Shown here one piece after another: positions 1 through 61,627 of a stretch of 61,627 nt of DNA; positions within the stretch are counted from its first letter, which is position 1; every line of letters begins with the position of its first letter. A model generated the notes under the pieces. It searched no databases. It saw only the letters and a list, made by a program, of their open reading frames with translations, and was not told the DNA's origin. Source of the DNA: Chiloscyllium plagiosum. Lineage: Eukaryota. Both the position numbers and the translations under genes were made by a program. Location of the stretch: NCBI RefSeq assembly GCF_004010195.1, contig NC_057719.1, positions 7,479,372-7,540,998 on the forward strand, written 5' to 3'.

Positions 1-528
1 CCAGCAATACATTTTTACCTATGCTGCCTGACCTGCTGGGCTTTTCCAGCAACACATTTTCAGCTATGCTGCCTGACCTGCTGCGCTTTTCCAGCAATAC
101 ATTTTCAGCTGCTGCCTGACCTGCTGCGCTTTTCCAGCAACACATTTTCAGCTTGCTGCCTGACCTGCGCTTTTCCAGCAACACATTTTCAGCTCCTTGG
201 ATGCTGCCTGACCTGCTGCGCTTTTCCAGCAACACATTTTCAGCTCCTTGGATGCTGCCTGACGTGCTGTGCTTTTCCAGCAATACATTTTCAGCTCCTT
301 GAATGCTGCCTGACCTGCTGCGCTTTTCCAGCAACACATTTTCAGCTCCTTGGATGCTGCCTGACCTGCTGTGCTTTTCCAGCAACACATTTTCAGCTTG
401 CTGCCTGACCTGCTGCGCTTTTCCAGCAACACATTTCCACCTATGCTGCCTGACCTGCTGCGCCTTTCCAGCAACACATTTTCAGCTGCTGCCTGACCTG
501 CTGTGCTTTTCCAGCAACACATTTTCAG
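1..528 (+). repeat. Tandem array (about 11 full units of 43-51 bp, continuing off the left edge) derived from a PLE terminal repeat
   Basis: Unit (ctccttgga)tgctgcctgacctgctgcgcttttccagcaacacattttcag matches 25086-25135 and 45845-45895. It explains the repetitive ORFs 148-531 and 303-563. Confidence 0.93.
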
Positions 529-1901
529 CAAATAATGAGATGCTAGTCATGGAAATAAGGTAGTTGCTGCTCATTAGCGAGATTCTGAACTCACCACTTA
601 AACTTTAAGGAGAAAATGGTAAACACCTCCGTCTTCATTGCGATTCTGATTTTTCATTCTTGGGTATTTTCCCACATTTCTCCTTGCCCGTACCACTCGA
701 GAGTGGAAAATTTGGCCCATTGTATTTTGTAAATCTGCCAAGTCTAGATCAAACAGTTGAGTGGTCTGACTACCTTTCAATGCTGCTAGCACTATGCCCC
801 ATATTTACTTGTACACTTTGGACATTTTACACTAGAAACGTAAAACTGAATTTTTTTTCTAAGGAGGTTCAAAAATTGGAGCTGTGGAATTTTTGGCCAT
901 TTTCTACAACCAATGAATAGGGTAACTTAAAACCAGAATCTGGTTACTGATGATGGTTACAGTTTTTTCAAAATATTATTTTCATGTTGCAACAAAGGTG
1001 ATTATTAATGCTGCTTAAGAGAACGACACACGATTGCACTACAAGATTCAGATGGTGCATTGCTCATCTAAATATCAATCATTTTTCAATCTCAAAATCC
1101 CACGTTCATGGACCAGTATTGGTTGCTTGCACTGCGCTGGATTGTAATGGATATTTTTCATTGCGTAGTCACCATGGCAACTGCAATAAGTAAAATGGTT
1201 TGTCATTCTTATGGATGTGTTTTAACCTGCTTATGAATAGGTGAGCTGGATGTGGTTAATATTGCACATTCCAGAATATTGCCGGAAGCCTGTAGAAAAT
1301 AAAGATTGAGTGACAATGCAGCTGTCTGTTGAGAACAAAACTTGTTTCTCTGGATCCTACGCACTCTAAGCCGAACTAATGAAGAGGCCAGGTGAAGGCC
1401 AACAAGCCATTTCTTTATGGGACAAAAGTCATGTTCTGAGAAACTTATAAAACTGGCAGAATAAATTTTCATTATCAATTGTGTCTTTGGTACAATCGTA
1501 ATTTTCAAATCTCTGATGATATTTGGAAAGATTTGCCTTTATTGTCTGTTGATAACCATTCTCCTAGGTTTTAAACCTCTAAAATTGTAAATCTGTGCTA
1601 AAGCATCACTATTCATAGAGTCATACAGTCATAGAAATGTACAGCACGTAAACAGACCCTACAGTCCAACTTGTCCATGTCGACTAGATATCCCAACCCA
1701 ATCTAGTCCCACCTGCCAGCACCTGGCCCATATCCCTCCAAACCCTCCCTATTTATTTACCTATTGAGATGCTTTTTAAATGTCGCAATTGTACTACCCT
1801 CCACCACTTCCTCTGGCAGCCGATTCCACACCTGCACCACCCTCTGCGTGAAAAAGTTGCCTCGGTCCCTTTTATTATCTTTCCCCTCTCACCCTTAACC
1901 T

Positions 1902-2039
1902 TAACCTTATTCCTGATGAAGGGCTTTTGCCCGAAACGTCGATTTTGCCTGTCCTCAGATGCTGCCTGAATTGCTGTGCTCTTCCAGCACCACTGATCCA
2001 GAATCTGGTTTCCAGCATCTGCAGTCATTGTTTTTACCT
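1902..2039 (+). mobile_element. Short PLE-terminus insertion carrying a hammerhead motif
   Basis: Interrupts the CR1 between duplicated cttaacct (1894-1901 and 2040-2047). Confidence 0.8.
1911..1942 (+). ncRNA. Minimal type I hammerhead ribozyme motif, intact core
   Basis: CUGAUGA (1913-1919), extra A, stem II GGGC-UUUU-GCCC, GAAA (1933-1936), CGUC cleavage context, UC/GA proximal stem I. Activity not shown. Confidence 0.8.
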
Positions 2040-5588: not shown

Positions 5589-5812
5589 GAGGAGAAAGTG
5601 AGCACTGCAGATGCTGGAGATCAGAGTTGAGAGTGTAATGCTGGAAAAGCACAGTTGGTCAGGCAGCATCTGAGGAGTAGGAGAATCGACATTTTGAGTA
5701 TAAACTCTTCAGTGGGATTCCTGATGAAGAACTTATGCTCAAGAGGTTGATTCTCCTACTCCTCAGATGCTGTCTGACTGGCTTTGTTTTTCCAGCACCA
5801 TGCTCTCGACTT
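5589..5812. mobile_element. Head-to-head inverted PLE-terminus insertion
   Basis: Minus copy about 5589-5716 and plus copy about 5719-5812 turn around at degenerate hammerhead cores. TSD tccctataacYcag at 5575-5588 and 5813-5826. Confidence 0.82.
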
Positions 5813-6880: not shown

Positions 6881-7030
6881 TGTGGTGCTGGAATCACCAT
6901 AGGAATGATGAGCTTATGCTCAAAATGTTGACTCACCTGCTGTTCAGATGCTGCCTGACCGGCTGTGCTTTTCCAGCACCACACTTTTTGTCTCTGATCT
7001 CCAGCATCTGCAGTTCTCATTTTCTCTCTG
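6881..7030 (+). mobile_element. PLE-terminus insertion with degenerate hammerhead (stem II GAGC-UUAU-GCUC)
   Basis: 13-bp TSD ttggatatatctg at 6868-6880 and 7031-7043; short inverted piece tgtggtgctgga at the 5' end. Confidence 0.8.
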
Positions 7031-10107: not shown

Positions 10108-10360
10108 ATAAAAAAGAAACAGGGAATACTGGAGAAACTGGAGAAACCCAGCAGGTCTGGGAGCATCTGTGAGAAAAACAGAAGTAACATATGAGTGTTG
10201 TTCAGAACTGTTTCAGAGTTGAACCACTGTTCTTAAGAGTCATATCAGACTTGAAATGTTAATTCTGTTTTTCTCATCACACATGCTTTCAGACCTGCTA
10301 AATTTTTCCAGTATTCTGTTCGTTTCAGATTTCCAGCATCTGAAAATTTTGCTTTTTAGT
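10108..10360. mobile_element. Older head-to-head inverted PLE-terminus remnant
   Basis: ctggagaaacccagcaggtctgggagcatctgtg is mirrored by catgctttcagacctgctaaatttttccag; degenerate core gagtc-atatca-gactt-gaaatgtta near 10237-10262. Confidence 0.6.
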
Positions 10361-12860: not shown

Positions 12861-13847
12861 ACTCTCTGCCATCGTGAGGCAACCCTCTGCTATCTTCAGG
12901 ACATGGCCTCAAGAGGCGATCTGCCTGCTGGATCGTGGCACTGTCCTCATATTACTGCATAACTAACAAATTGATTATCCACTGTTGTTAAGCGGTGTTA
13001 CTGGAATAACCTCTTAGGTGGCAAAATCATGTTGAAGTGGGATTGCCAAATCAATGTCCTGCTGTGTAAATTGCCTTTTCCCACAGGAAGAGTCTGTCCA
13101 ATGGGCACGAAAATACTTTGCACCTGGTGTGACCAGCAATATCAGCTGCTTACTGGGCAGCCTGAATGGTATTGTAGCAGGAGAAGTAATGCATACAGGT
13201 AGTCCCTGTATACCTCAGAGGTGTTGATTCAGACCAGTCTTGATGTCACACAGCCAGGTACATTGACAAGATTCCAAATTCAGGCAACATCAATTCTCAA
13301 AAGACCATGTACCAAAATATTGTATATTAACTTTATCACCCAAAGTATCCCTGAGAGTACCTTGACCATATTCCTAATGAAGTATTTTTGAATTAGTTGG
13401 GTTTCCATTGAATTATATTCGAATTATCTGTAAGATCTTGCAGTACTTCTCATTGCACTTTGTTGCTTCACAACTTTTATTAGAACTACAAACGCTATGT
13501 GTTTTTACTTGCATAATTCTTTTGTTCAATACTATTTCAGCCTCCTCTACACATGGGATTATATACTTTTTAGTGAGCCATTGACACAAATACTCTCATG
13601 TTGGCTAAATAGTGGGGGTTGTGGATTTTGAATAGTAGGATGTTGTTAAATTGATGGAAAATCAGAATATATATCAATCCTGATGTTATGGAAGCTGAAT
13701 AGAAGAACTAATATTAACATCTTTTACTTTCAGATGTGATAAGCCTGTAGATATGGTCTATTTCTAGCATTTTCTTCTTTTGTTTCTATATCTTAGCATT
13801 CACAGTTTTGGTTTTAACTCTTGTTAATATTGTTTCTTTTTCTTCAG

Positions 13848-16151
13848 AAACAGGCTCTTATTATTGTCACCATGGAACAAGAACGGAAACAGTGAATAGA
13901 AATCCCAACAACATGCAGCTGAATGGGTGCAAGATGTCAACAGCACGCTTTTCAAGCTGGGTGACATTTGATGATGATCCAGATCTTATTTCACCAGTAC
14001 AAACATCTCTTCTAAAACCAGGAATTTCTCACAACGGTACAACTCAAGAAAACGACAAGATTCTCCAGGGGCCTCAAACAGGCTTTGAAAAAACAGCATC
14101 AAAGAATAATTTGGTGGATTTTTCTGCTGAAGAAAAGAATGATGCACTTGCACTAATTAGTCCAACCATAAACCCATTTTCACCAGTTCGCAGCACTAAC
14201 CCTTTTTTGGATGAATCTCTACGTGATGTCCAGCCATCACCAATCAATCCATTTCAAGCATTCTTTGACCAAAATGAAAAGCCAGCCTTGGTGAACTCAT
14301 TAGCAAACACATCTCAGATCTTTCAACAGCAAAATGTACCGGATTCTCCATTTTCTGATTCACATCCCGATTGCCAAAAGGATTCTGTTCCTACATCAGG
14401 TCATCCTCCAGATCCTATTTCCCCATATTTTGGAAATCTAAATGATCAAAGGAGTTTAGTTGTGTTCAAGAATTCTCCAGATTTGGCCTCTCCACTTACA
14501 ATTGGAAGTGCTAATGATCAGGGGGATTCTGTTTTCATTAATTCTTCGAATTTGATGTCCTCATTTTCTGATGCAAAAATCAGAAATCAAAGGGATTCTA
14601 TTATTTTCAGTGATGAAGAAGATCTGATTCCCCCATTTCCTGATGGAAAACCTAATAATCAGATGGATTATTCTATAATCATGAATTCTGAAGATATGAT
14701 CTCACAACTTCCTTCTGCAATTGTAAATGATGGAAACATCAATAGTCAAAGGGATTCTATTATGGCATTTGACCACTGTCCAGACTCTCCCTTTTCCAGT
14801 TCTCACATTAATGGTCAAAGAGATTCTATTATGTTTAGTAATGCTTTAAATGCCACATTTACAGATGACCCAATAAACTACAGCTCTCATCTTGATGCTC
14901 TAACTCGGCTTAAACAAATTCACATTGAGGATCCAGATCAGCTTGATCGTCATACCTTACCTGATGATCCTTTGCACTCTCCAGAGGCAGAAAGCAATAC
15001 ATTTAACTTTAACTACCTGCAGCCTAAGGATGGTTGGCCAATGATGCTGAGAATACCTGAGAAAAAGAACATCATGTCATCAAGACACTGGGGCCCTATA
15101 TATGTCAAAATGCTAGATAATGCATGTTTACAACTCTTTTATGAAAAGGGTCTTGAGAAGCCTTTTCGGGAGGTTCAGCTTCTGCCCTGCCATGAGCTGT
15201 CTGAACTGAAACTTCAGAACTTTGATGAAAATGGGAAAATACACACTATAAGTATAGATAAAGTATTATACAAGGAAAAACGGAAATATCATCCTATGCT
15301 AACAGTAGTACAGACACCAGTCCGGGTGCAGGTGATGAAATTGGGCACCACAATTTATGAAGATTATGTAAGTTTTGTGACTACAGTTCAGGATACACTA
15401 ATGAAATTACCGAGTGCCAGAGATATTTGTGCCAATTATTTTGAAGAAGAGATAACTGTGGAAGTACAGGATGAATTTAAAGGTATTGTGGCTAAAGCAG
15501 ACAACAGACTCATCCAGCATTCTGTGGTTACTCATGTCAATGTTCTGGCTTTTGTGTCTGGAATGCCAGAATGTAGGATAGGCTTCAATGATGTTCAGAT
15601 GAAGGGACGTGAAGTTGTGTCAAGGCATGACATTATTCCCACAACCACAACTAAATGGATTAAAATGAATGACTTCCAGTTCCATACATGTGTGGTTGTT
15701 GATGAATTCAAAAATTCCAGATTAATTAAGTTTTTACCATTAGATGGTCATAGGTTTGAATTATTGCGTTTCAGGACTACCTTTGGTGAAAAGACACTTC
15801 CTTTCTCCCTTAAAACCTTAGCAACTGTTAAGGGTGCTGAAGTGGAGCTTCAGTCTTGGTTGGTGATGTCATCTGGGTTTGTGTCTAATCGGGATCATTT
15901 TGCAGCAATGCCTTGTGAAAATGTGATGATTCGGTATCCAGTCCCAACAGATTGGGTTAAGAACTTTCGACGAGAAGGTGTCTTGCGAGAAAAGTCCCTG
16001 AAGGCCAGAGTTAATAGGAGTGCCAGCTTTGGTAGTGCTAGCATGTCTGGCTCAGAGCCTGTCATGAGAGTAACATTGGGAAGTGCCAAGTATGAACATG
16101 CCTTTAAGGCTATTGTATGGCGAATCAACAGACTCCCGGACAAAAATTCAG
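13848..16151 (+). CDS. STON2: Stonin-2, large internal coding exon (WxxF motif, 3 NPF motifs, repeat-expanded linker, stonin homology domain, N-terminal part of mu-homology domain)
   Basis: Lies within ORF 13808-16198. Translation includes ARFSSWVTFDDD, TNPFL, QPSPINPF, DGWPMMLRIPEKKNIMSSRHWGP, PTTTTKWIK and AKYEHAFKAIVWRINRLPDKNS, which I recognise as vertebrate stonin-2. Acceptor ttctttttcttcAG ends at 13847 (phase 1); donor G|GTGAGT begins at 16152 (phase 1). Confidence 0.96.
14339..14841 (+). repeat. Degenerate coding tandem repeat within STON2 (7 units of 23-29 aa)
   Basis: Q-x-D-S-like anchors at 14375, 14447, 14519, 14588, 14660, 14747 and 14816 (spacings 72, 72, 69, 72, 87, 69 nt). 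Confidence 0.85.
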
Positions 16152-17347
16152 GTGAGTGGCAGTCGACTGTTGTTTGTGTGGAAGCTCTTAACTGTTAATG
16201 TTTTACCCCGACCAGTCTAAATCTTATCACTAAAGTATATGTTGACCTATAAAGGAAAAGGGTAGAAGTACCATAGATAAATGTCTCCTGAGATAAGTTC
16301 CATGAAACTGGCAGGCAAGCTTTGTATCAAAAGAATTCATGACAGTATAATTTACATATTGATACAGTGTAGTCTTTTTTTAAAAAATGTTTCTTTTCAT
16401 TTGCTTACTGGCAATCTAAAATTTTGAAAGGTAGGAGAAATAACTCCTATTGCAAAGATTGGGATTGTAAAAGGGGGGGATGCAAGAACAAGAGCTTGTA
16501 CACAAAACTTGAAAGTGGCAGGACAGGTTAACAAAGCAGCCAATAAATTGGTATCAACTTGGGATGAAACTGAAACACTTAAATGATTTCTACATCATTG
16601 GTCATATTTGTACCTTGAATCTTAATAGATTGTGTAAAAGTGATCAGAGTTGTACAACCGTAACAACAGTAAGTGGAAATTGTTCCTATTAGAGAAACCT
16701 ATTCACATTGGTTCTACTTTATGCTTGAGTAGTTGCATTGGAGCAATCTCATTCTGCTTTTGTGAATGTTACATTAAGGGCAAAGTTTGCTGTCATAGTA
16801 TATTTTAGCACAGGAGGACATTTGTTATAGCTGTTCTTTAGACCTCCTACTTCTGCAAATTTCTCTCCATGTATTTATCCTTATTTTTTAGGGTGGTGGA
16901 TACACAGCCTCCAATCAGGCAGTTACCTTTACAGTTACTCTTTGCCTGAATGGTTTTTCTTCATGTTGCATCTGTTTATTGGTCATAATACTCCAGCTGT
17001 GGAAGAGTAAATGTGTTTATGTATATTTAGCATAACTTCCAGTTTTTTTTTTAAATTCTCAATGCTAAACTCTAAATCCAAATTCTTGGATTCCATTAAT
17101 TTATTGGCTGCTTTGTTAACTTGTCCTGCCACTTTCAAGTTTTGTATACAAGCTCTTGTATTCCCCCTTTTTTTACAATTATCATCATCATCTCTAAGAC
17201 TACATAGTTCTATTTCCAGAACACTTCAAAACTCTGCTGCTGTCTCGGCCCACTTGTTCAAAGCCTTATCCTTTTGATACTTCTCGACCTAACTATTGCA
17301 ACAATGATGTGGATTAATCAGAGATAGTCAGCATGGAAAGACCCTTC

Positions 17348-19714: not shown

Positions 19715-20557
19715 TTAGAGTCATAGAGATGTACAGCATGGAAACAGACCCTTCGGTCCAATCCTGTCCATGCCGACGAGATATCCTAACCCAATCTAGT
19801 CCCATCTGCCAGCACCCGGCCCATATCCCTCCAAATCCTTCCTATTCATATACCCATCCAAATGCCTCTTAAATGTTGCAATTGTACCAGCCTTCACCAC
19901 ATCCTCTGGCAGCTCATTCCATACACATACCACCCTCTGCATGATAAAGTTGCCCCTTAGGTCTCTTTTATATCTTTTCCCTCTCACCCTAAACCTTTGC
20001 CCTCTAGTTCTGGACTCCCGACCTCAGAGAAAAGACTTTGTCTATTTATCCTATCCATGCCTCTCATAATTTTGTAAACCTCTATAAGGTCACCCCTCAG
20101 CCTCCAACGCTCCAGGGAAAACAGCCCCAGCCTGTTCAGCCTCTCCCTGAAGCTCAGCTCCTCCAACCCTGGCAACATCCTTGTAAATCTTTTCTGAACC
20201 CGTTCAAGTTTCACAACATCTTTCTGATAGGAAGGAGACTAGAATTGCATGCAATATTCCAACAGTGGCCTAACCAATATCCTGTACAGCCGCAACATGA
20301 CCTCCCAACTCCTGTACTCAATACTGACCAATAAAGGAAAGCATACCAAACGCCTTCTTCACTATCCTATCTACCTGTGACTCCACTTTCAAGGAGCTAT
20401 GAAGCTGCACTCCAAGGTCTCTTTGTTCAACAACACTCCCTAGGACCTTACCATTAAGTGTATAAGTCCTGCTAAGATTTGCTTTCCAAAAATGCAGTAC
20501 CTCGCATTTATCTGAATTAAACTCCATCTGCCATTTCTCAGCCCATTAGCCCATCTG
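19715..20557 (-). mobile_element. CR1/HER1-like 3' fragment
   Basis: ORFs 19796-20527: MEFNSDKCEVLHF, LERVQKRFTRMLPG; tail near 19715; similar to 1614-2398. Confidence 0.9.
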
Positions 20558-24072: not shown

Positions 24073-24944
24073 ATGCCATGAACCCAAAGAGTCTGGGGTC
24101 CATGTTGACAACTACCATATACCACTGTGCCACCTCTGATAATTCTGCCCTGTCATTGGGGTAGGATATACTAACATATGAAATAGGAGCAGAAGTAGGT
24201 TATTTTGGTCCCTTGAGCTTTTCTGCCATTCAGTCATATTATGGCTTGTCTGTCTGTGTTTTGAATTCCTCATTTTCATTTATCCCTAAACTTCTGATTC
24301 CCAAACCAAACATGGGTCTATTTGCCTGTGCCTTAAAAATATTTAATGACCCCAAGCCCTGCAAATTGAGCAGAGAGTTCCAAAGTTCCACAACTCTCTG
24401 AGAAAACATTGGTGACATTCCCACTGTACCACTGCCTTTCCTTAAGTGTGTCAAAGCATCAAAAGAAGAAAGCAAATGGCTATTAAAAGGTCCATGTAAC
24501 CACAGCTTTTCAGTATTACGCTTCCGTATGTGCATCACTAAGTATTGTTTTGGTCAAGAAATCCCATTCATTAACTACCTCTCCAGCAAACTAATCTGAA
24601 ATAAAATATCCAGTTTCATACATTTAATGAAGACACCAGCTCAACCTCACAACCATCACCATTCTCCCTTTCACAGTGTCTGATTTGTCATGCTGTTTAT
24701 CCAAGTCATAGATGAATAGAGATGTTGTCTAAATAACTAAATCTATCATCCTCTGTTCCCGTTGCAAACACTGTTCTGCACCTCATGACTTCATCCCTCT
24801 ACCTGATTGCATATTGCAATTTAACCAGACTGCTTGCAACTTCAACATCCTGTTTAACAATAAGATTAATTTTGACTGCACCATCAACAAGGATGACCAT
24901 TTCTACCTTCCTAACGTCACCGAACCTAGCCCTTGTCCTAGCCC

Positions 24945-25170
24945 TCACCTTGACCTCCCTCCACCTATCGCATTTCCAACGCCCCTCCCCCAAGTCCCTC
25001 CTCCCTATCTTTTATCTTAGCCTGCTGGACACCCTTTCCTCAAACCTGAAGAAGGGCTTATGCCCGAAACGTCGATTCTCCTGTTCCTTGGATGCTGCCT
25101 GACCTGCTGCGCTTTTCCAGCAGCACATTTTCAGCTCTGATCTCCAGCATCTGCAGCCCTCACTTTCTCC
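24945..25170 (+). mobile_element. PLE 3' terminus with intact hammerhead core
   Basis: C-rich region, then CUGAAGA-A-GGGC-UUAU-GCCC-GAAA-CGUC at 25046-25073, then the tail ...ccagcatctgcagccctcactttctcc. Confidence 0.82.
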
Positions 25171-25241
25171 TTGTCTTAGTATACGCTGCTGAAACTTACT
25201 TTACTATTTTCTACATGTATCAGTGTGTACATGTATACATT

Positions 25242-30354: not shown

Positions 30355-30724
30355 AAAATGTTAACAAAATGTTCTTAAAACATTCAGTAATAAAAACAAT
30401 GCTAGAGAAACTCAGCAGGTCTGGCAGCATCTGTAGAAGAGAAGCAAAGTTAATATTTCAAGTCTGATTGACTTCCTTCTGATATCTCTTGAGCTAAAAC
30501 CTAGAATTCTATTTTCATTTTTATAGTCTAATTAATTGTACCTTGTGCAGGCCATACCATCATGCAGTAAGTTGCTAACTATGTTCTGTGAGCTTTTATT
30601 TGAGCTGTTTATTTATAACTGACTGTACTCCACAGGATCCAGTGCAGCAAAGGTTAATAGTTACTGCTTTTAAAATAGTTGAAAATTTGTAATATTCTTT
30701 ATGCCAATAAAATTGTTTCTTCAG

Positions 30725-31183: not shown

Positions 31184-31995
31184 TATTTCATTTACTTTCT
31201 TTTAAAAAATGAACACTTTGTACAAAAGAACCAATATCTTAAGTTGCAAAAAGCTCAAACCTATATATCCCTCACATCCACTTCTCTCCCTGAGGCTTTT
31301 TTAAAGATTAATTTGAGATGTGGGCTATGATGACTAGGCCAGCATTTATTGCCCTTCCCTAATTGCTCAGAAGGCTGTTAAGAGTCAAACACATTGGTGT
31401 GTGTCTGGAGTCGCACATAGAAAAGATTAGATAAAGAGAACAGTTTACTTTCCTAAAGGACATTAGTGAACCAGATGGTTTTTTGACAATTGGCAATGAT
31501 TTCATGGTCATCATCCGGTTTCTTTTATGACCTGGGTCACTGGATTAATAATCTAGAGATAAACCTCTAGTCCCAAAAGTAGAGATTGCTGGAAAAGCTC
31601 AGCATCTGTGGAGAGAAATCAAGTTAACATTTCGAGTTGAGTGACCCTTCCTTGTAACTGAGGAAGTTCTGACTTCTAGGCCATTGCTTCTTCCCCCACT
31701 AAAATTTATTGCTGAATTGCTCATGCCATATAAATTCCTATCAAAGGTTCCTATACCATAAATCAATAAACCAAACTACAAGGAAAATACAAAAGAATAG
31801 GATAACCCAATCTTCTTCTGCTGTAAATATTTCTATTCATTCATAGGATCTGGGTATTGCTGGCAAAACCAGCACTCATTGCCCATCCCTAGTTGCCCTT
31901 TTTGTGTTAGCCACTGGAATATCCTTTGTCTTGCAGTGTTCTTATATTTTCAAACCACAATCTTGCAACAAATGGGAATAGTTACAAAATAAGTT

Positions 31996-36487: not shown

Positions 36488-36755
36488 AAAAACTGAATTG
36501 CAGATGCTGGAAATCAGAAACAAAATCAAAACTGAAATTTCTGGAAAAGCTGAGTAGGTCTGGCAGCATCTGTGGAGAGAAATAAGGGTTAATGTTTCAG
36601 GTCGAGTGACCCTTTTTCAGAACTGATGGTAATTATACAGAAGATAGGGTGGGGAGAATAAACGAAAGGGAGAGATACGAGTCCAAAGAGAGAGCTGAAC
36701 AGTTGGACAAACAAATGAGTGGTGAAAGATCACTGTGGGGATTGAATAGCTGCTA
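36488..36755 (-). mobile_element. PLE terminus, fourth hammerhead family (degenerate)
   Basis: Minus strand CUGAaaa-A-GGGUC-acuc-GACCU-GAAA-CAUUA at about 36590-36620; related copies near 30395-30480, 31575-31670, 40270-40350 and 47280-47320. Confidence 0.65.
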
Positions 36756-39152: not shown

Positions 39153-39368
39153 AGGGATCGGTTTAGCTCAGTTGGCTAGATTGTTGGTGTGTACAGCCAA
39201 CAGTGTGGGTTCAATTCCCATCACTGCTTTGAGGTTACCATGAAGGACTCTCCTTCTCAACTTCTTTCTTCACCTGAGGTCTGGTTGCCCTCAGGTTAAA
39301 TCACCACCAGATACATCTTTCTGTAATGAGAGAGCAGCCCCCTATGGTCTGGTGAGATGATGGTGACT
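39153..39368 (+). mobile_element. tRNA-derived SINE of a family distinct from HE1
   Basis: A box tagctcagttgg and B box ggttcaattcc, followed by a non-tRNA body; does not form a complete cloverleaf. Confidence 0.72.
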
Positions 39369-40201: not shown

Positions 40202-40619
40202 CAAAAGAATTGTTCATTCAACCATCAGACTATTTCTGACAGAAATCAGATACAATCTTAAATAATAATAACAGCAAATGCTGAAAACACTCAGTAAGTT
40301 TCGCAGCATCTGTGGAGAAGGAAACAGAGCTAACATTTCAGGTCAGTGAGCTATCAGTTTTACCTCATCACTGAATACAGGTTAGTACTGAACCAGCTAA
40401 TAATAATCAAAAACCATCTGTGGTGAATTGTTTCAGAAATTAGTTCAGGTTCAGAAGCATTAAAGGTGAAGTGTTGCATCCTAAATGGAGAAAAACCTGA
40501 TGTTATCTGGGACTCCATTCAAAGACCAGCATTCATATCACATTTCCTATTAATTGAAACATATACTTGTGTGCTAAATATCTATTACTTGAGACCAAAC
40601 AATGAACTCTTGTTGGAAG

Positions 40620-41601: not shown

Positions 41602-41706
41602 ACTAGGAGAATCAGAGTCGATAGTGTGGTGCTGGAAAAGCTCAGCAGGTCAGGCAGCATTCGAGGAGCAGGAGAGTCATTTCCAGCACCCCACTTATCG
41701 ACTATA
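41602..41706. mobile_element. Fold-back mini-element from a PLE terminus, no hammerhead core
   Basis: 12-bp TSD tattaagcatca (41590-41601, 41707-41718); inverted arms agtcgatagtgtggtgctggaaa / tttccagcaccccacttatcgact. Confidence 0.78.
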
Positions 41707-42024: not shown

Positions 42025-43470
42025 GGTGAAATGTGTTGGTGAAGTTGATGAATTGTTCAATCTCCTCATGGGAGTATGAGGTGGTGTCGATGCAGTCATC
42101 AATGTCATGGAGGAAGAGGCGGGAAGTGGTGCCGGTGTAACTCTGGAAGATGGACTGCTCTACGTAGCCGACAAAGAGACAGGCATAGCTGGGGCCCATG
42201 CGGGTGCCCATGACTGCCCCTTTTGTCCTGAGGAAGTGGGGGGATTGGAAGGAGAAATTGTTGTGGGTGAGGACCATTTCAGCCAAATGGATAAGAGTGT
42301 CAATGGAAGGGTACTGGTGGGGACGTCGGGAGAGGAAGAAACAGAGGGCTTGGAGGCCCTGGTCATGGCAGATGGCGGTGTAGAGGGACTGGATGTCCAT
42401 GGTGAAGTTGAGGCGTTGGGGGCTGGTGAAACGGAAGCCTTGGAGCAGGTGGATGGTGTGGGTAGTGTCCCGAACGTATGTGGGAAGTTCCTGGATGAAG
42501 GGATATAGGACAGTATTGAGGGAAGTGGAGATGAGTTCGGTGGGGCAGAAGCAGGCTTAGACAATGGGTTGGCTGGGGTAGTCAGACTCTTGGATCTAGG
42601 GTAGGAGATAGAATCGGGCAGTGCAGGGTTCCTAAACTATGAGGTTGGAAACTGTGGTGGGAAATCCCCTGAGGTGATGAGGTTGTGTATGGTCTGGGAG
42701 ATGATGGTTTGGTGATGGGGGGGTGAGGTCATGGTCAAAGGGGTGATAGGAGGAGGTGACATTGAGTTGGCACCAGGCTTCAGCAGTGTAGAGGTCTGTG
42801 CACCAAACTATCACTGTACCCCCTTTATCCGCTGGTTTGATGGTGAGGTTGGGATTGGAGCAGAGGGAGTGGAGGGCTGTGCGTTGTGAGAGCAAGAGGT
42901 TGGAGTTGGGGGTGTGTGTGGACAGGTTGAGGCAGTTGATGTCACGGTGGCAGTTGGAAATGAAGAGGTCAAGGGCAGGTAGCAGACCAGCACGGGATGC
43001 CAGGGTGGATGGGGTGTGTTGGAGGTGGGAGAAGGGGTCCTCAGTGGGAGGGCAGGAGTCTTGGTTGTAAAAGTAGGCATGGAGGCGGAGGCGGCGGAAG
43101 AAACGTTCAAGGTCGCAGCGTGTGTCGAACTCATTAATCTGGGACCATAGAGGGATAAAGGTGAGGCCTTCATTTTGGACTAAACGTTAGTCCTCAGTGA
43201 GGGGAGGTCTGGGGGAATGGTGAAGACATGGCAGGGATGGGAGCGAGGACCTGGAGTGGGGCTAGAGTTGGAGGTGGGATGGGGGCTAGGACCTGGCGTG
43301 GGGCTGGAGTTCGCAATGGGGGCGGAGACAGTGGCTTGAGTGGGCGTGGTTTAGGGTCAATAGTGATGTCACCAAAGGAGGGGCTTACAAAGGGGACAAC
43401 AGTGGTGCTTATGGTTAAGTTAATGGGAGCGGACGTGACATCATGGGTGGGGAGGGTAACGTTACTGTTG
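42025..43470 (-). mobile_element. Penelope-like element 5' part (N-terminal region and RT), inverted
   Basis: TIKPADKGGTVIVW, MDIQSLYTAI, GAVMGTRMGPSYACLFVG, FLHDIDD. Confidence 0.9.
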
Positions 43471-43487
43471 GGTACTCGAGGCTCCAG

Positions 43488-44870
43488 TCCCCATCTCTTC
43501 CTCTGCTACATTGATGACCAAATCAACGCCACCTCGTGCTCCCATGAGTAGGTTGAACAGTTCATCAACTTCACCAACGCATTCCACCCCCGCCTTAAAT
43601 TCACTGGACCATCTCTGACACCTCCCTCCCCTCCCCTTGACCTCTCCATCTCCATCCAAGAGAACCGACTCAGCACTGACATTTTTTACAAACCCACCGA
43701 CTCCCACATCTACCTGGATTACACCTCCTCCCACCATACCTCCTGCAAAAATGCCATCCCGTATTCCCAATTCCTCTGCCTCTGCCGCATCTGCTCAGGG
43801 GAGGACCAGTTCGCACCAGATGGCCTCCTACTTTAAAGACCGAAATTCCCCCTCCCATGTGGTTGAAGATGCCCTCCAATGCATCTCATCCACATCCCAC
43901 ACCTCCGCCCTCGAACCCCACCCCTCTAACTGCAACAAGGACAGAACTCCCCTGGTCCTCACCTTCCACCCCACCAACCTCTGCATAAATCGCATCATCT
44001 GCCAACATTTCCGTCACCTACAAATGGACCCCACCACCAGGGATAAATTTCCCTCCCCATCCCTATCCACTTTCCACAAAGACCGTTCCCTCCGTGACTC
44101 CCCCATTCAGGTCCACGCCCCCTAATCTCCTCTCCTGGCAACTTCCCCTGCAACCAAGGAATTGTAAAACCTGCGCCCACAACACTCCCTTACCTCTGTC
44201 CAAGGCCCCAAAGGAGCCTTCCACATCCATCAAAGTTTCACCTGCACTTCCACACATGTCATTTATTGTATCCGTTGCTCCCGATGCGGTCTCCTCTATA
44301 TTGGGGAGACTGGATGCCTTCTCACAGAGCGCTTCAGGGAACATCTCTGGGACACCCACACCAATCAACCCCACCGACCCGTGGCCAAACATTTCAATGC
44401 CCCCTCCAACTCTGCCAAGGACATGCAGGTCCTGGGCCTCCTCCATCGCCACTCCCTCACCACCCGACGTCTGGAAGAAGAACACCTTATCTTCCACCTC
44501 GGGACCCTTCAACTCTAGGGCATCAATGTGGACTTCACCAGTTTCCTCATTTCCCCTCCCCCCACCTTATCCCAGTTCCAACCTTCCAGCTCAGCACCGC
44601 CCTCATGACCTGTCCCACCCGTCAATCTTCCTTCCCACCTATCCACTTAATCCTCCCCTCTGACCTATCACCTTTACCCCCACCTCCATCCACCTATTGC
44701 ATTCTCAGCTACCTTCTCCCCAGCCCCACCCCTTCCTATTTATCTCTCCACCCCCGAGGCTTCCAGCCTCATTCCCGATGAAGGGCCCCAGCCCAAAACG
44801 TCGATTTTCCTGCTTCTCGGATGCTGCCTGACCTGCTGTGCTTTTCCAGCACCACACTCTCAACTCTGAT
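43488..44870 (+). mobile_element. Penelope-like element 3' part (RT end, Cys-rich linker, GIY-YIG endonuclease, terminus; Neptune-like)
   Basis: FLCYIDD, DRTPLVLTFHP, NCKTC, VIYCIRCSRCGLLYIGETG (about 44260-44315); degenerate hammerhead at 44775-44802. Confidence 0.9.
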
Positions 44871-45792: not shown

Positions 45793-46120
45793 CAGAGTTT
45801 AAGATTCTGAAGAAGGGCTCATGCCCGAAACGTCGATTCTCCTGCTCCTTGGATGCTGCCTGACCTGCTGCGCTTTTCCAGCAACACATTTTCAGAGTTT
45901 AAGATTAGCACAGCAGGTCAGGCAGCATCGAGGGAGCAGGAAAATCGACGTTTCGGACAAAAGTCTTTCATCAGGAGTGACCCCTGATGAAGGGCTTTTG
46001 CCTGAAACTCGATTTTCCTGCTCCCCGGATGCTGCCTGACCGGCTGTGCTTTTCCAACATCACACCCTTGACACTAATCTCCAGCATCTGCAGTCCTCAC
46101 ATTTGCCAGAGTTTAAGATT
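45793..46120. mobile_element. Compound PLE-terminus insertion with three hammerhead motifs and a triplicated 14-bp target
   Basis: cagagtttaagatt at 45793, 45893 and 46107; cores at 45807-45834 (+), 45947-45974 (-) and 45984-46010 (+). Confidence 0.88.
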
Positions 46121-47279: not shown

Positions 47280-48517
47280 AAACAGAGTTAACGTTTTGAG
47301 TCAAGTGACCTTTCTTCAGGGATCTGAAAACATATTTGTGCTGATGATGGGGAATGAGAAGGAAAATGAGTGAGTAGATAGATGATGATGAAGCCTAGAG
47401 ATAGATAAATAGAGAGGGAGAGAGAGATAGAGAGTAGGAGAGAGAGAGAAAGAAAAAAGGGCAGGCAGACAAAGGGATTGTTGATAGTAATCCAGGGAAG
47501 AAGAAGAAAAGGTGGATAGATGATCATGGGGGCTATGAGCAATTGAAAGTGAGTTGGTTGTACTGAAAGCAGCCCGTTTCATGACATGACTTAGGATTGT
47601 GAGTTGTGTAATAAACAAGGAAAGAGGTTTTCATGCGCTGAAATTGTTAAACTTGACATTAAGTGCTGAACGCTGTAATGTACCTACACAGAAGACGAGG
47701 GGTTGTTCTTCCAGCTTACATTGAGCTTTGTTGGAGCACTGCAGCAGGTCTGAGGCAGAAATATTGGTCAGGGAGCAGGGTGCATTGGAGTGGCAGGTAA
47801 CTGGAAGCTCAGGGTCATTATTACAGACAGAACATAGGCTTTCTGCAAAGTGGTTACCCAGTCTGTGCTTTGTGTCCCCAGTGTAGCAGAGTCCACATTG
47901 TGAGCAGTGAATACAGTGGACTAGATTGAGTGAAGTGCAGATATGTCGCGGCTTCACCACGAAGGTAGGTCTGGCCTTCGAGAATTGAAGAGGGAGGAAG
48001 TAATTAGGTAGGGGCTACACCTTCTGCAATTACACAGCAAGGTGCCATGGAGCTGCGGGAAGTTCTTGGGAATCGAGAAGAAGTGGTCCAGGGTGTTTCA
48101 GGGGTCACTGTGGAAGGCCGACAAGGGAGGGGAGGGGAATATGTGTCTGTTGGTGGCATCTAGCAGGAAGTGGAAAATGGCAGTTCATCATCATTTGGAT
48201 GTGAATGCTGGTGGGGTGGTGGACCAGGGGGACCTGTTGATGTTATGGGAGGGAAGAGGAAGGGTGAGGACTGAAGAGTGGGAAATGTGTCAGACGCGGC
48301 TGAGGGCCCATGTGGGGAATCCTCAGTTGAGGAAAAAGACATATCTGAGCCCCCACCTTTTGCGGAAAGGTGGTATCATCAGGAACAGATACAACAGATA
48401 TGGAAAAACTGGGAAAATGGAATGGAGTCCTTGCAGAAAGCTGAACGTGAGGATCTATAATCTAGTTAACTGTGGGAGTTGGGTTTGTAATGGATATTGG
48501 TGGACAGCCTATCCCAG
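47280..48517 (-). mobile_element. Penelope-like element 3' fragment with GIY-YIG domain
   Basis: ORF 47631-47960 CTSLNLVHCIHCSQCGLCYTGDTKHRLGNHFAE; terminus with degenerate hammerhead at 47290-47319. Confidence 0.85.
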
Positions 48518-49428
48518 AAATACTTTGTCTGTAAGAATGGATCAGAGAGAATTCTGTGTACCATTTCCCATCACACACCGTCCTGACTTAGAAGTATATC
48601 ACTGTTCCTTCACGGTCACTGAGTCAAAATCCATGACCTTCCTTCTTAACAGCACTTTTGTACCCTACACTTTAAGGGCCACAGCAGGTCAAGAAGACAA
48701 CTCTGCAGTGATTTTTATAAGGCTAGTCGACTCAGCCTCATAGAATATGAGTTCCCTGACTGGGGCTGTGAATCTGGTCCAATCAAGGAGCCCTGGCTGA
48801 CAGATTTAAAAAAGGAGCATCAGATGTTGTGGCAGTCTGAGAGCTGGCTCTGAACAGGCAGTACTAAAGTCAAGGACTATTCATATGTAAATGAAGAGTG
48901 ACTAGGCGAAGGGATACCAGCCTCTATGGAGTTATTTCAGTGGTGACAAGAGTAAAGCACACTTCTGAAGAAACTCACTCCCAACAGTCTTTGAGTTGGG
49001 GTCAGCATTTCTTACACCATGTTTGACTTGTTCAGTTCTGCTGTCAAGGATTTGGACCAGTACGTGGAAAAAAAGCATTATTTTTTCCGGACAAATGACA
49101 TTGTAGCACTCAAAAAGCAATGAGTACTTTTCCTGACAACCTGTGGACCCACAGCTTTTTCTGTAATTAGGAACCTAACTTTCCCTGAGGCACCAGATAT
49201 TAAAACTTTTCAAGAATTGACGGACATGGTTAGGAATATTATGACCCTCAAGCACTCTCTAATTCTGAGAGTCTATTGGTTTTACTTGACAATTCAAGAT
49301 CCATACTGGGATTTTTTATTAGGTTAAAATGACTGGCAGAAGCATGTGACTTTGATTTAACCCTTAGTGAGAAGCTGAGAGACCTTTTGGTATGAGAGAT
49401 TCACGCTGTAATTATACAAAAACACCTA

Positions 49429-51708: not shown

Positions 51709-52380
51709 CTAAGACTTTGGGTAATGCAGAGATTAAATATGCTCAGATAGAGAAAGAAGGTTTGGTGATCATATTTGGAGCCAGGCAGCTCTACCAATAC
51801 TTTTATAGATGAAGATATGTGATAATCACGGACCACAGATCTTTACTTGTTCTGCTGAAAGTGGACAAGGCTGTGCTGCCCATAGCTTTGGGCTGCATTC
51901 AGTGGTGGACTCTAATACTAAGTGCTTATAATTACACATTAGAACACCGTCTGGGAGGCCGGGTAGCGAATGCAGATGCATTGAACCACCTCCCGATAGC
52001 AGATACACCAATGGGGGTATCCCCAATGGCAGAGACGTTGTCACAGCTGACAATATCAGACACTGGACTTTGGCAGGAAGATCCGGTCTTTTCAACATTG
52101 AAACATCTGGTTGTGATGGGGGAAACCAAAGGACCGTCACAACTAGAATTGAAACCTTATTGGACCCGGAGAGACCAGCTCACAGTAGGGAATGGCATAT
52201 TGTTATGGGGTGCAAGAGTGATTGTCCCGAGCAAAGGTCACTGCCACATGCTGGCAGAACTCCACCTGGGTCATCCAGGGATCTCCAAAATGAAAATGTT
52301 GGTGAGAGGTTAGGTCGACGATGTTCTTAGTCATTGTAGATGGCCACTCAAAGTGGCTGAATGTGCATAGAGTTCATTTG

Positions 52381-54049: not shown

Positions 54050-54169
54050 AGTCAAGATTAGAGTGGAAACCTAATATCAGGAAAGCACAGCAGGTCAGGC
54101 AGCATCCCAGGAGCAGGAAAATCAATGGTTTCGGGCAAAAGCCCTTCATCAGGAATGAGGGCTTCCACC
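54050..54169 (-). mobile_element. PLE-terminus insertion with hammerhead core
   Basis: 13-bp TSD tgatagatttaga (54037-54049, 54170-54182); minus-strand CUGAUGA-A-GGGC-UUUU-GCCC-GAAA at 54129-54152, stem III altered. Confidence 0.82.
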
Positions 54170-55442: not shown

Positions 55443-58400
55443 TAGAACATAGAACATTACAGTGCAGTATAGGCCCTTCGGCCTTTCATGTTGCGCCAAC
55501 CTGTGGAACTGATCTGAAGCCCATCTAACCTACACTATTCCATTTTCATCCATATTTTTATCCAATGACGATTTAAATGCCCTTAAAGTTGGCGAGTCTA
55601 TTACGTTGCAGGCAGGACATTCTACACCCTTACTACTCTTGTAGTAAAGATCCTACCTCTGACATCTGTCCTATATCTATCACCCTTCAATTTAAAGCTA
55701 CGTCCCCTCGTGCTAGCTATCACCATCTGAGGAAAAAAGGTTTTCACTGTCCACCCTATCTGATCCTCTGATCATCTTATATGTCTCAATTAAGTCACCT
55801 CTCAACCTTCTTCCCCCTCACGAAAACAGCCTTAGGTTCCTCAGCCTTTCCTCATAATACCTTCCCTCCATACCAGGCAACATCCTAGTAAGTCTCCTCT
55901 GAACCCTTTCCAAAGCTTCCACATCCTTCCTATAATGCGATGACCAGAATTGTACCCAATATTCCAAATGCAGCCGCACCAGAGTTTTGTATAGCTGCAA
56001 AACTGGCTCCGAAACTCAATCTCTCTACCAATAAAAGCTAACACACCATATGCCTTCTTAACAACCCTATCAACCTGGGTGGCAACTTTGAGGGATCTAT
56101 GGACATGGACATCGAGATCTCTCTGCTCATCCACACTACCAACAATTTTACCATTAGCCCAGTACTCTGTATTTCTGTTACTCCTTCCAAAGTGGATCTC
56201 CTCACACTTTCCTGATTAAACTCCATTTGCTACCACTCAGCCCAGCTCTGCAACATATCTATGTCCCTCTGTAACCTGTAACATCCTTTGGCACTATCCA
56301 CAACTCCACCGACCTTAGTGTCATCCACAAATATGCTATTCCATCCTTCTATGCCCCCATCCAGGTCATTTATATAAATGACAAACACCAGTGGCCCTAA
56401 AACAGATCCTTGCAGTACTCCACTAGTAAGTGAACTCCAGGAAGAACATTTCCCATCAACCACCACTCTCTGTCTTCTTTCAGCTAGGCGAAAGTGAGGA
56501 CTGCAGATGCTGGAGATTAGAATCAAGAGTGTGGTGCTGGAAAAGCACAGCAGGTCAGGCAGCATCGAACGAGCAGGAGAAATGATGTTTCGGGCAAAAA
56601 CCCTGATGAAGCTGCCTGACCTGCTGTGCTTTTCCAGCACCACACTCTCAACGTCTTTCAGCTAGCCAATTTCTGATCCAAAGCGCTAAATCACCCTCAG
56701 ACCCATGCCTCCATATTTTCTGCAATAGCCTACCATGGGGAACCTTATCAAACGCTTTACTGAAATCCATATACACCACATCAACCTCTTTACCCTCATC
56801 CAGCTGTTTGGTCATCATCTCAAAGAACTCAATAAGGTTTGTGAGGCACAACCTACCCTTCACAAAACCGTGTTGACTGTCCTTAATCAAATTATTCTTT
56901 TCTAGATGATTATAAATCCTATCTCTTATAACCTTTTCCAACACTTTACCCACAACCAAAGTAAGGCTCACTGGTCTACAGTTACCAAGGTTGTACTTAC
57001 TCCCCTTCTTGAATAAGGTGATTACATTTGCTATTCTCCAGTCTTCTGGCACTATTCCTGTAGACAATGACAACATAAAGATCAAAGCCAAAGGTTCTGC
57101 AATCTCCTCCCCAGCTTCCCAGAGAATCCTCAGATAAATCCCATAAGGCCCAGGGGATTTATCTATTTAACACTTTCCAGAATTGCTAACACCTTCTCTT
57201 TATGAACCTCAATCCCGTTCCGTCTAATAGCTTGTATCTCAGTATTCTCCTTGACAACATTGTCTTTTTCCTGTGTGAATACTGACGAAAAATATTCATT
57301 TAGCACCTCTCCTATCTCCTCGGACTCCACACACAGCTTCCCACTACTGTCCTTGACTGGCCCTAATCTTACCCTAGTCATTCTTTTATTCCTGACATAC
57401 CTATAGAAAGCTTTAGGGTTTTCCTTGATCCTACCTGCCAAAAACTTCTCATGTCCCCTCCTGGCTCTTCTTAGCTCTCCCTTTAGGTCCTTCCTGGCTA
57501 GCCTGTAACTCTCAAGCACCCTAACTGAGCTTTCATGTCTCATCTTTACATAAGCCTCCTTCTTCCTCTTGACAAGAGATTCAACTTCTTTAGTAAACCA
57601 CAGGTCCCTTGCTCGACCACTTCCTCCCTGCCTGACCGGTACATACTTATCAAGGACACGCAGTAGCTGTTCCTTGAATAAGCTCCACATTTCAATTGTG
57701 CCCATCCCTTGCAGTTTTCTTCCCCGTCCTATGCATCCTAAATCTTGTATAATCGCATCATAATTGCCTTTCCCCCAGCTATAACTTTTGCTCTGTGGTA
57801 TATACCCATCCCTTTCTATCACTAAAGTAAACACAGCTAAACTGTGGTTACTATCACCAAAGTGCTCACCTATCTCCAAATCTAATAAATCTGGCCTGGT
57901 TCATTACCCAGTACCACCTCTAATGTGGCCTTGCCTCTTGTTGATCTATCTACATACTGTGTCAGGAAACCCTCTTGCACATTGGACAAAAACTGACCCA
58001 TCTGAAGTACTCAAACTATAGCATTTCCAGTCAATATTTGGAAAGTTAAAGTTTCCCATAACAATTACCCTGTTACTTTTGCTCCTACCCAGAATCATCT
58101 TTGCTTTCCTTTCCTCTACATCTCTGGAACTTTTCAGACGCCTATAGAAAACTTTCAACAGGGTGACCTCTCCTTTCCTGTTTCTAATCTCAGCCTACAC
58201 TACCTCAGTAGATGAGCTCTAATCAAACATCCTTTCTGCCAACATAATACTGTATTTGAATAATAATGCTGCACCTCCCCCTCTTTTACCTCCTTCCCTG
58301 TTCTTACTGAAACATCTAAATCCTGGAACCTGCAATAACCATTCCTGTCCCTGCTCTATCCATGTCTCCGAAATGACCAAACATCGAAGTCCCAGGTACC

Positions 58401-59290: not shown

Positions 59291-59829
59291 TTGATGGGTA
59301 ACAGTCAGGAAGACAGCATGTGAGAGATTCCTTATTCCTTTATAATCTCTCTCTGGAACTCTTGATCTTTAAATGAACACACACTTTGTAAAAGCTGCAA
59401 TTGTTATTTTCAAGCTAATTTGTTTGGGATGGCATATTCATTCTTGTGATCACCAGCAAGGCTGAAATTCATTGCCCTTCCTAAAGCCCCCCTGGGATCA
59501 GATGGTATATCTGAGTAAAGGCAAAATACTACAGACACTGGAAAGCTGAAATGAACACAGAGAATGGGGAGAAATTCAGTAAGTCTGGCAGCACCTGTGG
59601 AAAGTGAGGTGGTATGTCAAAGTGGTATGTCTCTCCACTGATGCTGCCAGACCTGCTGAATTTCTCCAGCATTCTCTGTGGTATACCTGAGGGGTTGGTT
59701 AGGCCACTTTGGAGGGAGGTTTAGAGTCACCAATCTGGGACCAAACCAGATAAGGACCCAGGTTTCCTCCCTAAATCTCAGTAGTGGAATCTTGGTTTAT
59801 AATGATAATCTGACAGCTTTGTGGTCCCT

Positions 59830-60881: not shown

Positions 60882-61430
60882 TAGAACATAGAACATAGAA
60901 CAATACAGCACAGAACAGGCCCTTCGGCCCTCGATGTTGTGCCGAACATTTGTCCTAGCTTAAGCATCCATCCATGTACCTATCCAATTGCCGCTTAAAG
61001 GTCACCAAAGATTCTGACTCTACCACTACCACAGGCAGCGCATTCCATGCCCCCACCACTCTCTGGGTAAAGAACCCACCCCTGACATCCCCCCTATACC
61101 TTCCACCTTAAATTTATGTCCCCTTGTAACACTCGGTTGTGCCCGGGGAAAAAGTTTCTGACTGTCTACTCTACAATATTTCGAATGCTGTCTGAAAAGA
61201 GCCTAATGAAGCATTAGCAATACATTTCTGCTCTTGTGCCCTAGCCCTCAATGGTAACACTGCATTTGCCGCCTGAAATGTCAACTGAACCTGCACTTTA
61301 AGAGAATCCTGAACTAGGATGCCCAAGTTGCTTTGTGCTTCAGATTTCTGAAGCCGTTCCTCATTTAGAAAATATTCTACCCGTCTATTCTTCCTACCAA
61401 TGTGCATAATTTCACACTTTTCTATATTCA
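60882..61430 (-). mobile_element. Two further CR1 fragments
   Basis: (ttctatg)n tail at 60882-60905; NIEKCEIMHIGRKN in ORF 61171-61431. Confidence 0.78.
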
Positions 61431-61431
61431 A

Positions 61432-61627
61432 AAACTATGGCACTGGAAAAGCACAGGTCAGGTAGCACCTGAGGAGCAGGAGAGTCTATGTTTCTGGCAT
61501 AAGCCCTTCATCAGAAAGGTGGAGGGGGAAGGGGGCTGAGAGATAAATAGGGGTATAGGGTGGAGCTGGAGGCAACATAGCTGGGAAGGTGATAGGTGGA
61601 TGCAAGTTGGCAGGGGGGTAATAGCGA
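61432..61627 (-). mobile_element. PLE 3' terminus with degenerate hammerhead, running off the window
   Basis: Reverse complement resembles 44660-44855; CUGAUGA-A-GGGC-UUAU-GCCa-GAAA at 61491-61514. Confidence 0.8.

Follow-up and report, generated by a model that had tools for sequence, protein, structure and literature searches.

An abundant carpet-shark repeat carrying a minimal hammerhead ribozyme motif is the pseudo-LTR end of a Penelope-like element

RESULTS

A minimal hammerhead motif and its copies

We analyzed a stretch of 61,627 nucleotides of the Chiloscyllium plagiosum genome (NC_057719.1, positions 7,479,372 to 7,540,998, forward strand), here referred to as the window, to which all coordinates apply. 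The sequence CTGATGA-A-GGGC-TTTT-GCCC-GAAA-CG-T-C is present at 1913-1940 (+), where pattern and descriptor searches both placed a minimal type I hammerhead core made up of CUGAUGA (1913-1919), an extra A (1920), stem II (1921-1924 with 1929-1932), GAAA (1933-1936), and a palindromic ACGU (1936-1939), with a predicted cut after C1940. The core of the minimal hammerhead of Penelope-like elements (PLEs), CUGANGA...GAAA...UH, is therefore present at 1913, together with the extra nucleotide between A9 and G10.1 and the palindromic 15.2-16.2 region that takes the place of helix III. A loose core pattern matched six times in the window against 0.43 expected; four matches were copies of one repeat, family 1 (1913+, 25046+, 45807+, and 45974-), and two were unrelated. 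The strict descriptor, which combined the core, stem II, and the palindromic helix III region, matched three times (1913, 25046, and 45807), compared to a mean of 0.07 and a maximum of 1 in 200 dinucleotide shuffles, confirming the hammerhead letters that a sequence-only reading of the window had reported. That reading called all three copies intact, which holds for the core and stem II but not for the whole fold, since stem I is weak. The decayed copies that it listed all exist, with two amendments: the GAGC strand placed at 6908 actually lies at 6910-6913, in a copy that lacks C3/U4/G5 and G12, and the copy at 45974(-), read as having a GAC/GUC stem II, carries an A·C mismatch at 10.1/11.1.

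Rfam returned 13 matches in the window (E≤5), none of them a hammerhead; those resembling microRNAs (45839-45942, 5667-5769, and 45940-46017) fell short of the gathering score and correspond to inverted pairs of repeats. None of the 48 loci recovered by pattern scanning in viral (4) and metagenome (44) contigs was related to family 1 by BLASTN, indicating that those pattern matches arose by chance.

BLASTN and inspection of the window gave 14 family-1 arms in 10 insertions. Most copies are short pieces of about 90 to 127 bp (11 of the 14 arms). The copy at 1913 is a complete short insertion (1908-2037, +) that begins at the 5' edge of the hammerhead, extends through the tail, and lies in the 3' portion of a LINE relic that we take to be of CR1 type. 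It is flanked by an 8-bp target-site duplication (1894-1901, repeated at 2040-2047, +), and the eight bases occur once in another copy of the host repeat, at 19716-20346, which lacks the insertion and represents an empty site. The copy at 24942-25170 (+), with an intact core (25046-25073), a full tail, about 105 nt of upstream pseudo-LTR (pLTR), and an 11-bp duplication (10/11), belongs to a younger CUGAAGA subfamily, while the short one at 45807-45892 (+) has an intact core (45807-45834) and a 14-bp duplication but no tail. Back-to-back pairs occupy both strands at three places, each with one tailed and one tailless arm. The pair 45974(-)/45984(+) (45907-46106) is joined at the hammerhead 5' edges and sits in the 14-bp target also used by the 45807 copy; as two separate insertions went into this target, it is present three times (45793, 45893, and 46107). 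The pair 5711(-)/5721(+) (5589-5812), of an older subfamily, has an A-U pair in stem II and a 14-bp duplication (13/14), and the pair 56604(-)/56597(+) (56486-56652) is decayed and lies within a LINE relic. Decayed copies were also found at 6881-7027 (+), with a tail and a very short inverted arm; at 41602-41701 (-), with a short inverted arm and a forward arm starting near the predicted cut; at 54050-54169 (-), with a 13-bp duplication; and at 61430-61627 (-), carrying 100 nt or more of upstream pLTR and running past the window edge. The copies are thus dispersed monomers or inverted pairs, and the direct hammerhead tandems that a dimer model of cleavage requires are absent from the window. 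A minisatellite at 1-529 (+), built of ca. 44- to 51-bp units from the pLTR segment that follows the hammerhead (ca. +40 to +90) without including the hammerhead itself, is a satellite born from a PLE end.

A second, older hammerhead family is represented by at least six decayed copies (about 10200-/10226+, 30480-, 31657-, 36620-, 40355-, and 47320-), with family-2 stretches at 10138-10345, 30400-30490, 31600-31660, 36499-36625, 40242-40360, 47280-47325, and 59556-59680. It has the same core as family 1, a 5-bp stem II, U-A as the first stem I pair, and inverted pairs. We rejected a tRNA-derived SINE, as the unit begins at the hammerhead with no tRNA-like head; ARAGORN called no tRNA gene in the window. 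A tRNA-like stretch at 39157-39229 (+), uncalled by ARAGORN and scoring 27 bits against an Rfam threshold of 29, is probably a SINE head. The repeats sit around or inside a stonin gene, of which an 815-aa open frame at 13751-16198 (+) is a large exon (Pfam Stonin2_N, E=1e-24; Adap_comp_sub, E=7e-44). Another open frame, at 51813-52313 (+), has a motif resembling those of Gypsy-type LTR elements in their RNase H/integrase region.

Insertion boundaries

Taking C3 as +1 (with the 1913 and 56597 boundaries set by eye), nine of the 14 arms start between -7 and +8, one at +8 to +13, one at +19 to +29, and three at -100 or beyond; a single arm (41680-) starts near the predicted cut site. The 3' ends fall at two points 35 to 40 nt apart, six at about +120 to +128 and eight at +68 to +100. 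Target duplications of 10 to 17 bp with at most one mismatch flank all nine short insertions, and the long insertion has no clear target duplication. A 30- to 40-bp tail at one end and an inverted, truncated 5' copy, both found here, are described as traits of EN+ PLEs (PMC8557442, in the part available to us). Given that the copies keep the whole core, we infer that their template was uncut RNA.

Link to Penelope-like coding sequences

A broken but near-complete PLE occupies 42026-44870 (both strands), with RT, linker, and GIY-YIG followed by the pLTR. Its RT part (43305-42026, -; 71% over 399 aa to protein P0008) adjoins, on the opposite strand, a segment with the RT end, linker, and GIY-YIG (43444-44606, +) that leads into the pLTR and the decayed hammerhead at 44775, about 170 nt past the end of the broken RT/GIY-YIG frame. 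This frame holds the RT end and IYCIRCSRCGLLYIGETG; its Pfam GIY-YIG match (E=3e-4) scored 21.3, just below the cut-off of 22.6. The closest named protein is from Chiloscyllium punctatum (81%), and five longer homologues include proteins of C. punctatum (81% and 76%) and Mobula (57%). An RT with a C-terminal GIY-YIG carrying the CCHH motif is thus recognizable in a frame broken by stops, frameshifts, and an inversion. As the upstream RT part lies on the adjoining minus strand, the whole is likely one 5'-inverted insertion; about 108 nt of RT sequence occurs on both sides of the inversion with 81% identity, so that two separate copies are also conceivable. No full-length element, and no 5' copy of the flanking repeat, was seen in the window. 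At 47280-48570 (-), an older Penelope-like relic (48570-47541) has a family-2 hammerhead at its end, at about 47320. Hammerheads therefore sit in the 3' copies of the PLE flanking repeat at 44775 and about 47320, which bears out the earlier proposal that the repeat is a PLE terminus: one family ends an RT/GIY-YIG frame and the other ends a second relic.

Among 122 homologues, 109 had a detectable GIY-YIG core, and 103 of these showed a CX2-5CxxC linker before it, which the window copy also has, across a frameshift. According to the part of PMC8557442 available to us, this linker marks Neptune and Nematis and is absent in Penelope and Poseidon, making the repeat a PLE pLTR of Neptune/Nematis type; an assignment to Poseidon was dropped once the linker was found. 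None of the five long shark proteins examined has an N terminus reaching the pLTR. Two ray gene models bearing kinase-domain and chitinase-domain names (P0009 and P0016) are largely PLE ORF and likely misannotated.

Stems, folding, and covariation

At 1913, stem I (1909-1912 with 1941-1944, +) is weak, consisting of C-G, U-A, U·U, and A-U, that is, 2 bp, a U·U, and 1 bp, and at 25046 there is just one contiguous pair. In folding predictions for 1913, stem II had pairing probabilities of 0.95 to 1.0 and stem I of 0.00 to 0.03. In the predicted lowest-energy fold of the monomer, UGAUG of the core base-pairs with CGUCG, which spans the cut site (-11.4 kcal/mol, against -5.7 kcal/mol for a hammerhead-like fold), and self-pairing of the ACGU region was predicted to contribute only -3.5 kcal/mol. 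As naked monomer RNA, the hammerhead is predicted to have next to no activity.

Covariation was examined in 13 aligned copies, 12 of the 14 family-1 arms plus one of family 2. Across four helices, we counted eight cells with double-sided changes, compared to 2.5 ± 1.3 in shuffles (0 of 500 reached it), and 85.6% of pairing against 19 to 38% when the strands were slid, values biased toward the model, which was drawn from the same 13 sequences. Stem II was 94% paired, with double-sided changes at three of its four pairs, in agreement with the earlier claim that it varies while staying paired; these changes are transition pairs throughout, three share one subfamily, and they probably reflect few independent events. 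The G10.1-C11.1 pair was G-C in nine of the 13 copies and G-U in two. Stem I pairs 1, 2, and 4 held in 11, 10, and 9 of 12 cells, respectively, and pair 3 in 4 of 12 (3+1), being U·U or U·C in most window copies, although several copies have host DNA at this place. Downstream of the hammerhead, a long predicted helix common to both families (1956-1964 with 2013-2021, +; 9 bp) was paired in 94% of cells with zero double-sided changes, and we regard it as a candidate protein-binding or RT-start structure.

The family in public sequence data

With 24920-25200 as the reference stretch and 80% likeness, we examined 4 of 24 listed public runs. Three sets yielded 85,253, 106,187, and 18,914 matching contigs; these figures are not copy numbers, but the two largest support the very high repeat density that had been asserted from the window. 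In RNA, 3,807 of 12.96 million reads matched, on both strands, which is consistent with passive transcription. These reads showed no pile-up of ends at the cut site, a weak test given that the sample was about 2% of one poly(A) single-cell run, a poor library for cut ends. The RNA depth was about 270 upstream and about 2,200 to 2,550 downstream.

The majority letters at 25043-44 are TT, so the 5' strand of stem I ends in ATTC. Variants listed within the 28-nt motif were N7, two loop II positions, C11.1 to T, and U4 to A. The C11.1-to-T change, at a CpG site, made up about 11% of the depth in the two large contig sets. The U4-to-A change at 25047 was confined to the RNA run among the variants listed and is rare in the contig sets; it was strand biased, with 90 of 202 reads carrying it in one orientation but 3 of 186 in the opposite one, and probably represents one expressed locus. 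Stem I position 1.3 varies (T, A, or C); A, which reached 39% of the depth in the set of one other organism, would give a perfect 4-bp stem I.

Among the best 24 loose ends listed across the four runs, the best supported were at 25045/25051, 25126-35, and 25169-71, and none was at the cut (25073). No position collected large numbers of molecule starts or stops. Two effects exaggerate the clustering at the 5' end. At 25043-44 and 25050 the reference copy departs from the majority letters, so that clipping occurs there, and upstream the likeness to other subfamilies is only about 74%. More than about 6 nt upstream, agreement among the flanks is only 0.35 to 0.38, and this low agreement of the letters clipped at 25045 indicates varied flanks.

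DISCUSSION

Origin of the short copies

We consider, with a probability of roughly 0.8, that the repeat is the pLTR of a PLE with a Neptune/Nematis linker and that its short copies were made by the element's own RT from uncut RNA. The steps can be proposed by analogy with PAc, the Poseidon element of Anolis carolinensis (Frangieh et al. 2024, PMC11167929), although PAc belongs to another clade than the shark element, which counts against the analogy. The element protein would bind the RNA just downstream of the hammerhead and nick AT-rich DNA, and copying would start at one of two internal sites, about +90 to +100 and +126. Long, 5'-truncated copies would arise by priming at the downstream pLTR. 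From the upstream pLTR, the presumed origin of the SINE-like copies, synthesis would run off the template after about 127 nt, and inverted pairs would result where both strands were primed. The hammerhead would cut after C17 only when a protein or a partner copy supplied stems I and III, and most genomic copies, probably including that at 1913, are likely passive relics.

More tentatively, and with the odds somewhat against it, the 5' strand of stem I may double as the transcription start, so that the RNA begins with the hammerhead and the ca. 127-bp repeats (NSRE1 and relatives) are run-off cDNAs of uncut RNA, inserted directly. The Initiator consensus is YYANWYY, and Initiator-like sequences occur at this strand in both families (TCATTC and TCAGTT), suggesting that the RNA may start there; a match is expected by chance at 0.012 per position. 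Stalling of the RT at the folded region would equally explain the 5' boundary. Splicing of a leader onto stem I, known from Drosophila virilis, is unsupported, as the short copies have no constant sequence upstream; the check covered about 105 nt of upstream pLTR, so there may still be an intron. Should the transcription-start model be correct, the run-off cDNAs would resemble retroviral strong-stop DNA, repeat ends throughout the genome would mark where transcription of a Neptune-type element begins and where its RT starts at either site, and hammerhead cleavage would lie off the insertion path in vivo.

The short unit might instead be a self-standing, non-autonomous element, SINE-like or retrozyme-like, with its own master copies, cut in tandem dimers, perhaps circularized, and borrowing the PLE protein. 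Such an origin would account for units that are sharply bounded and far commoner than long copies (11 of the 14 arms, and the excess of downstream RNA depth), and retrozymes derived from pLTRs, some in one chondrichthyan genome, have been described (bioRxiv 10.64898/2026.07.22.740005, available portion). Direct repeats of the 127-nt unit did appear in 24, 32, and 4 contigs of the public sets, but these tandem joints are a tiny share of 85,253 to 106,187 contigs, with letters between the units that are indeterminate or spacer, and one target can be hit twice independently, as at 45793/45893/46107. With no direct hammerhead tandem in the window, and its one minisatellite (1-529) devoid of the hammerhead, we find this origin decidedly improbable. 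Less improbable, but still unlikely in our view, is that the hammerhead is vestigial in this lineage, its core being inherited or kept as a promoter or protein-binding part that never cuts. The mostly unpaired third position of stem I, the predicted misfolding of the 1913 monomer, copies that keep the whole core, and RNA read ends without a pile-up at the cut (a weak test) would all fit loss of cleavage, as would the PAc hammerhead mutants, which had no effect on insertion in vitro (PMC11167929, accessible part). Yet the core letters are kept in two families whose helices differ and whose first stem I pair is swapped (C-G versus U-A), and a large subfamily in another organism, with A at 1.3 (39% of depth), would have a perfect 4-bp stem I. 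Moreover, the portion of PMC4209133 available to us includes PLE hammerheads with a 2-bp helix I as well as a D. virilis hammerhead that cut weakly after extension of helix III. Chance resemblance in an ordinary SINE deserves almost no credence: loose patterns do match by chance, as at all 48 unrelated viral and metagenome loci, and Rfam gave no hammerhead match, but the descriptor found three matches against 0.07 in shuffles, the position fits that of PLE hammerheads, a second family has the same core, there is no tRNA gene, and the link of the repeat to a PLE ORF refutes it.

Significance

The repeat is the pLTR end of a PLE and carries a known hammerhead class. The motif is real, and the class has been known since 2014, here in a lineage for which we found no published report naming a PLE minimal hammerhead in sharks (most subscription papers and Repbase lay outside the search). 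The gain is chiefly one of annotation, as a major carpet-shark repeat, long regarded as anonymous or SINE-like, turns out to be a Penelope pLTR. The role of the PLE hammerhead is still called unclear (PMC8557442, available part), and the many sharp-ended copies offer a cheap natural test of cut versus uncut RNA as the template. The window and the public data favor uncut RNA, in agreement with one in vitro system, and by analogy the hammerhead probably cuts only with the help of protein.

Comparison with known systems

The minimal hammerhead class of metazoan PLEs was described in 2014 by Cervera and De la Peña (PMC4209133), who counted about 4,000 copies in coelacanth and 9,000 in Xenopus and saw activity, at a low level, only from dimers or trimers; no chondrichthyan appears in the portion of their alignment available to us or among the terms searched in their supplement. 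As in the parts of that study available to us, the shark motif is of type I and combines CUGANGA, the extra nucleotide, G10.1-C11.1, and a GAAA-C-G-U-H palindrome in place of helix III, is located in a pLTR, and occurs mostly as single truncated copies and opposite-strand pairs, thousands per genome. It differs in its 4-bp helix II, at the short end of the published range, and in the internal U·U of helix I, which spans 2 to 6 bp in the published cases.

In PAc, as far as the accessible part of PMC11167929 goes, hammerhead cleavage requires protein, uncut molecules serve as the main template, hammerhead mutants leave insertion unchanged, cutting and extension take place on both DNA strands, and the tail is set by two RT starts. 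Both elements have a hammerhead at the pLTR, two 3' ends 30 to 40 nt apart, AT-rich targets, and no RNA reads piling up at the cut. Counted from the first base of stem II, the last end here is at 118 nt and the RT starts of PAc are at 111 to 118, maybe a coincidence. In contrast, the shark element has the CX2-5CxxC linker that is missing in Penelope and Poseidon. The CUGAAGA subfamily lacks the ATG that lies within the core, and the frame opened by this ATG at 1913 closes after 17 codons; the shark ORF therefore probably starts at a different place than that of PAc. D. virilis Penelope has an internal promoter with a start 46 nt before a 75-bp intron ending at helix I (PMC2377424, in part), a geometry different from that of the Initiator model proposed here.

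Non-LTR retrozymes are likewise noncoding, hammerhead bearing, and pLTR related (PMC7229834 and bioRxiv 10.64898/2026.07.22.740005, both in part), but they are defined as tandem arrays of at least two consecutive hammerhead units, while the shark copies are scattered singly or as inverted pairs. With no tandem units in the window and tandem joints rare in public contigs, we do not classify the repeat as one; the word "shark" does not occur in the available text of PMC7229834.

The nurse-shark repeat NSRE1, published in 2006 as about 100 bp long with 17 copies in 170 kb (PMC1513397), has no PLE or ribozyme reading in the passages of that paper examined. One of its published primers holds the 3' strand of stem II and GAAACGUC, and five of the six best window matches of this primer were in register on family-1 copies, with single-primer scores (16 to 17 of 24) that shuffles also reached. 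The second primer matched by eye at about 15 to 18 of 24, directly downstream. NSRE1 differs in the 3' strand of stem I, and a Stegostoma PLE protein model (P0010) ends in MKGLRPKRQL, which is the translated core with an NSRE1-type 3' side. From these sequence comparisons, NSRE1 appears to be a relative.
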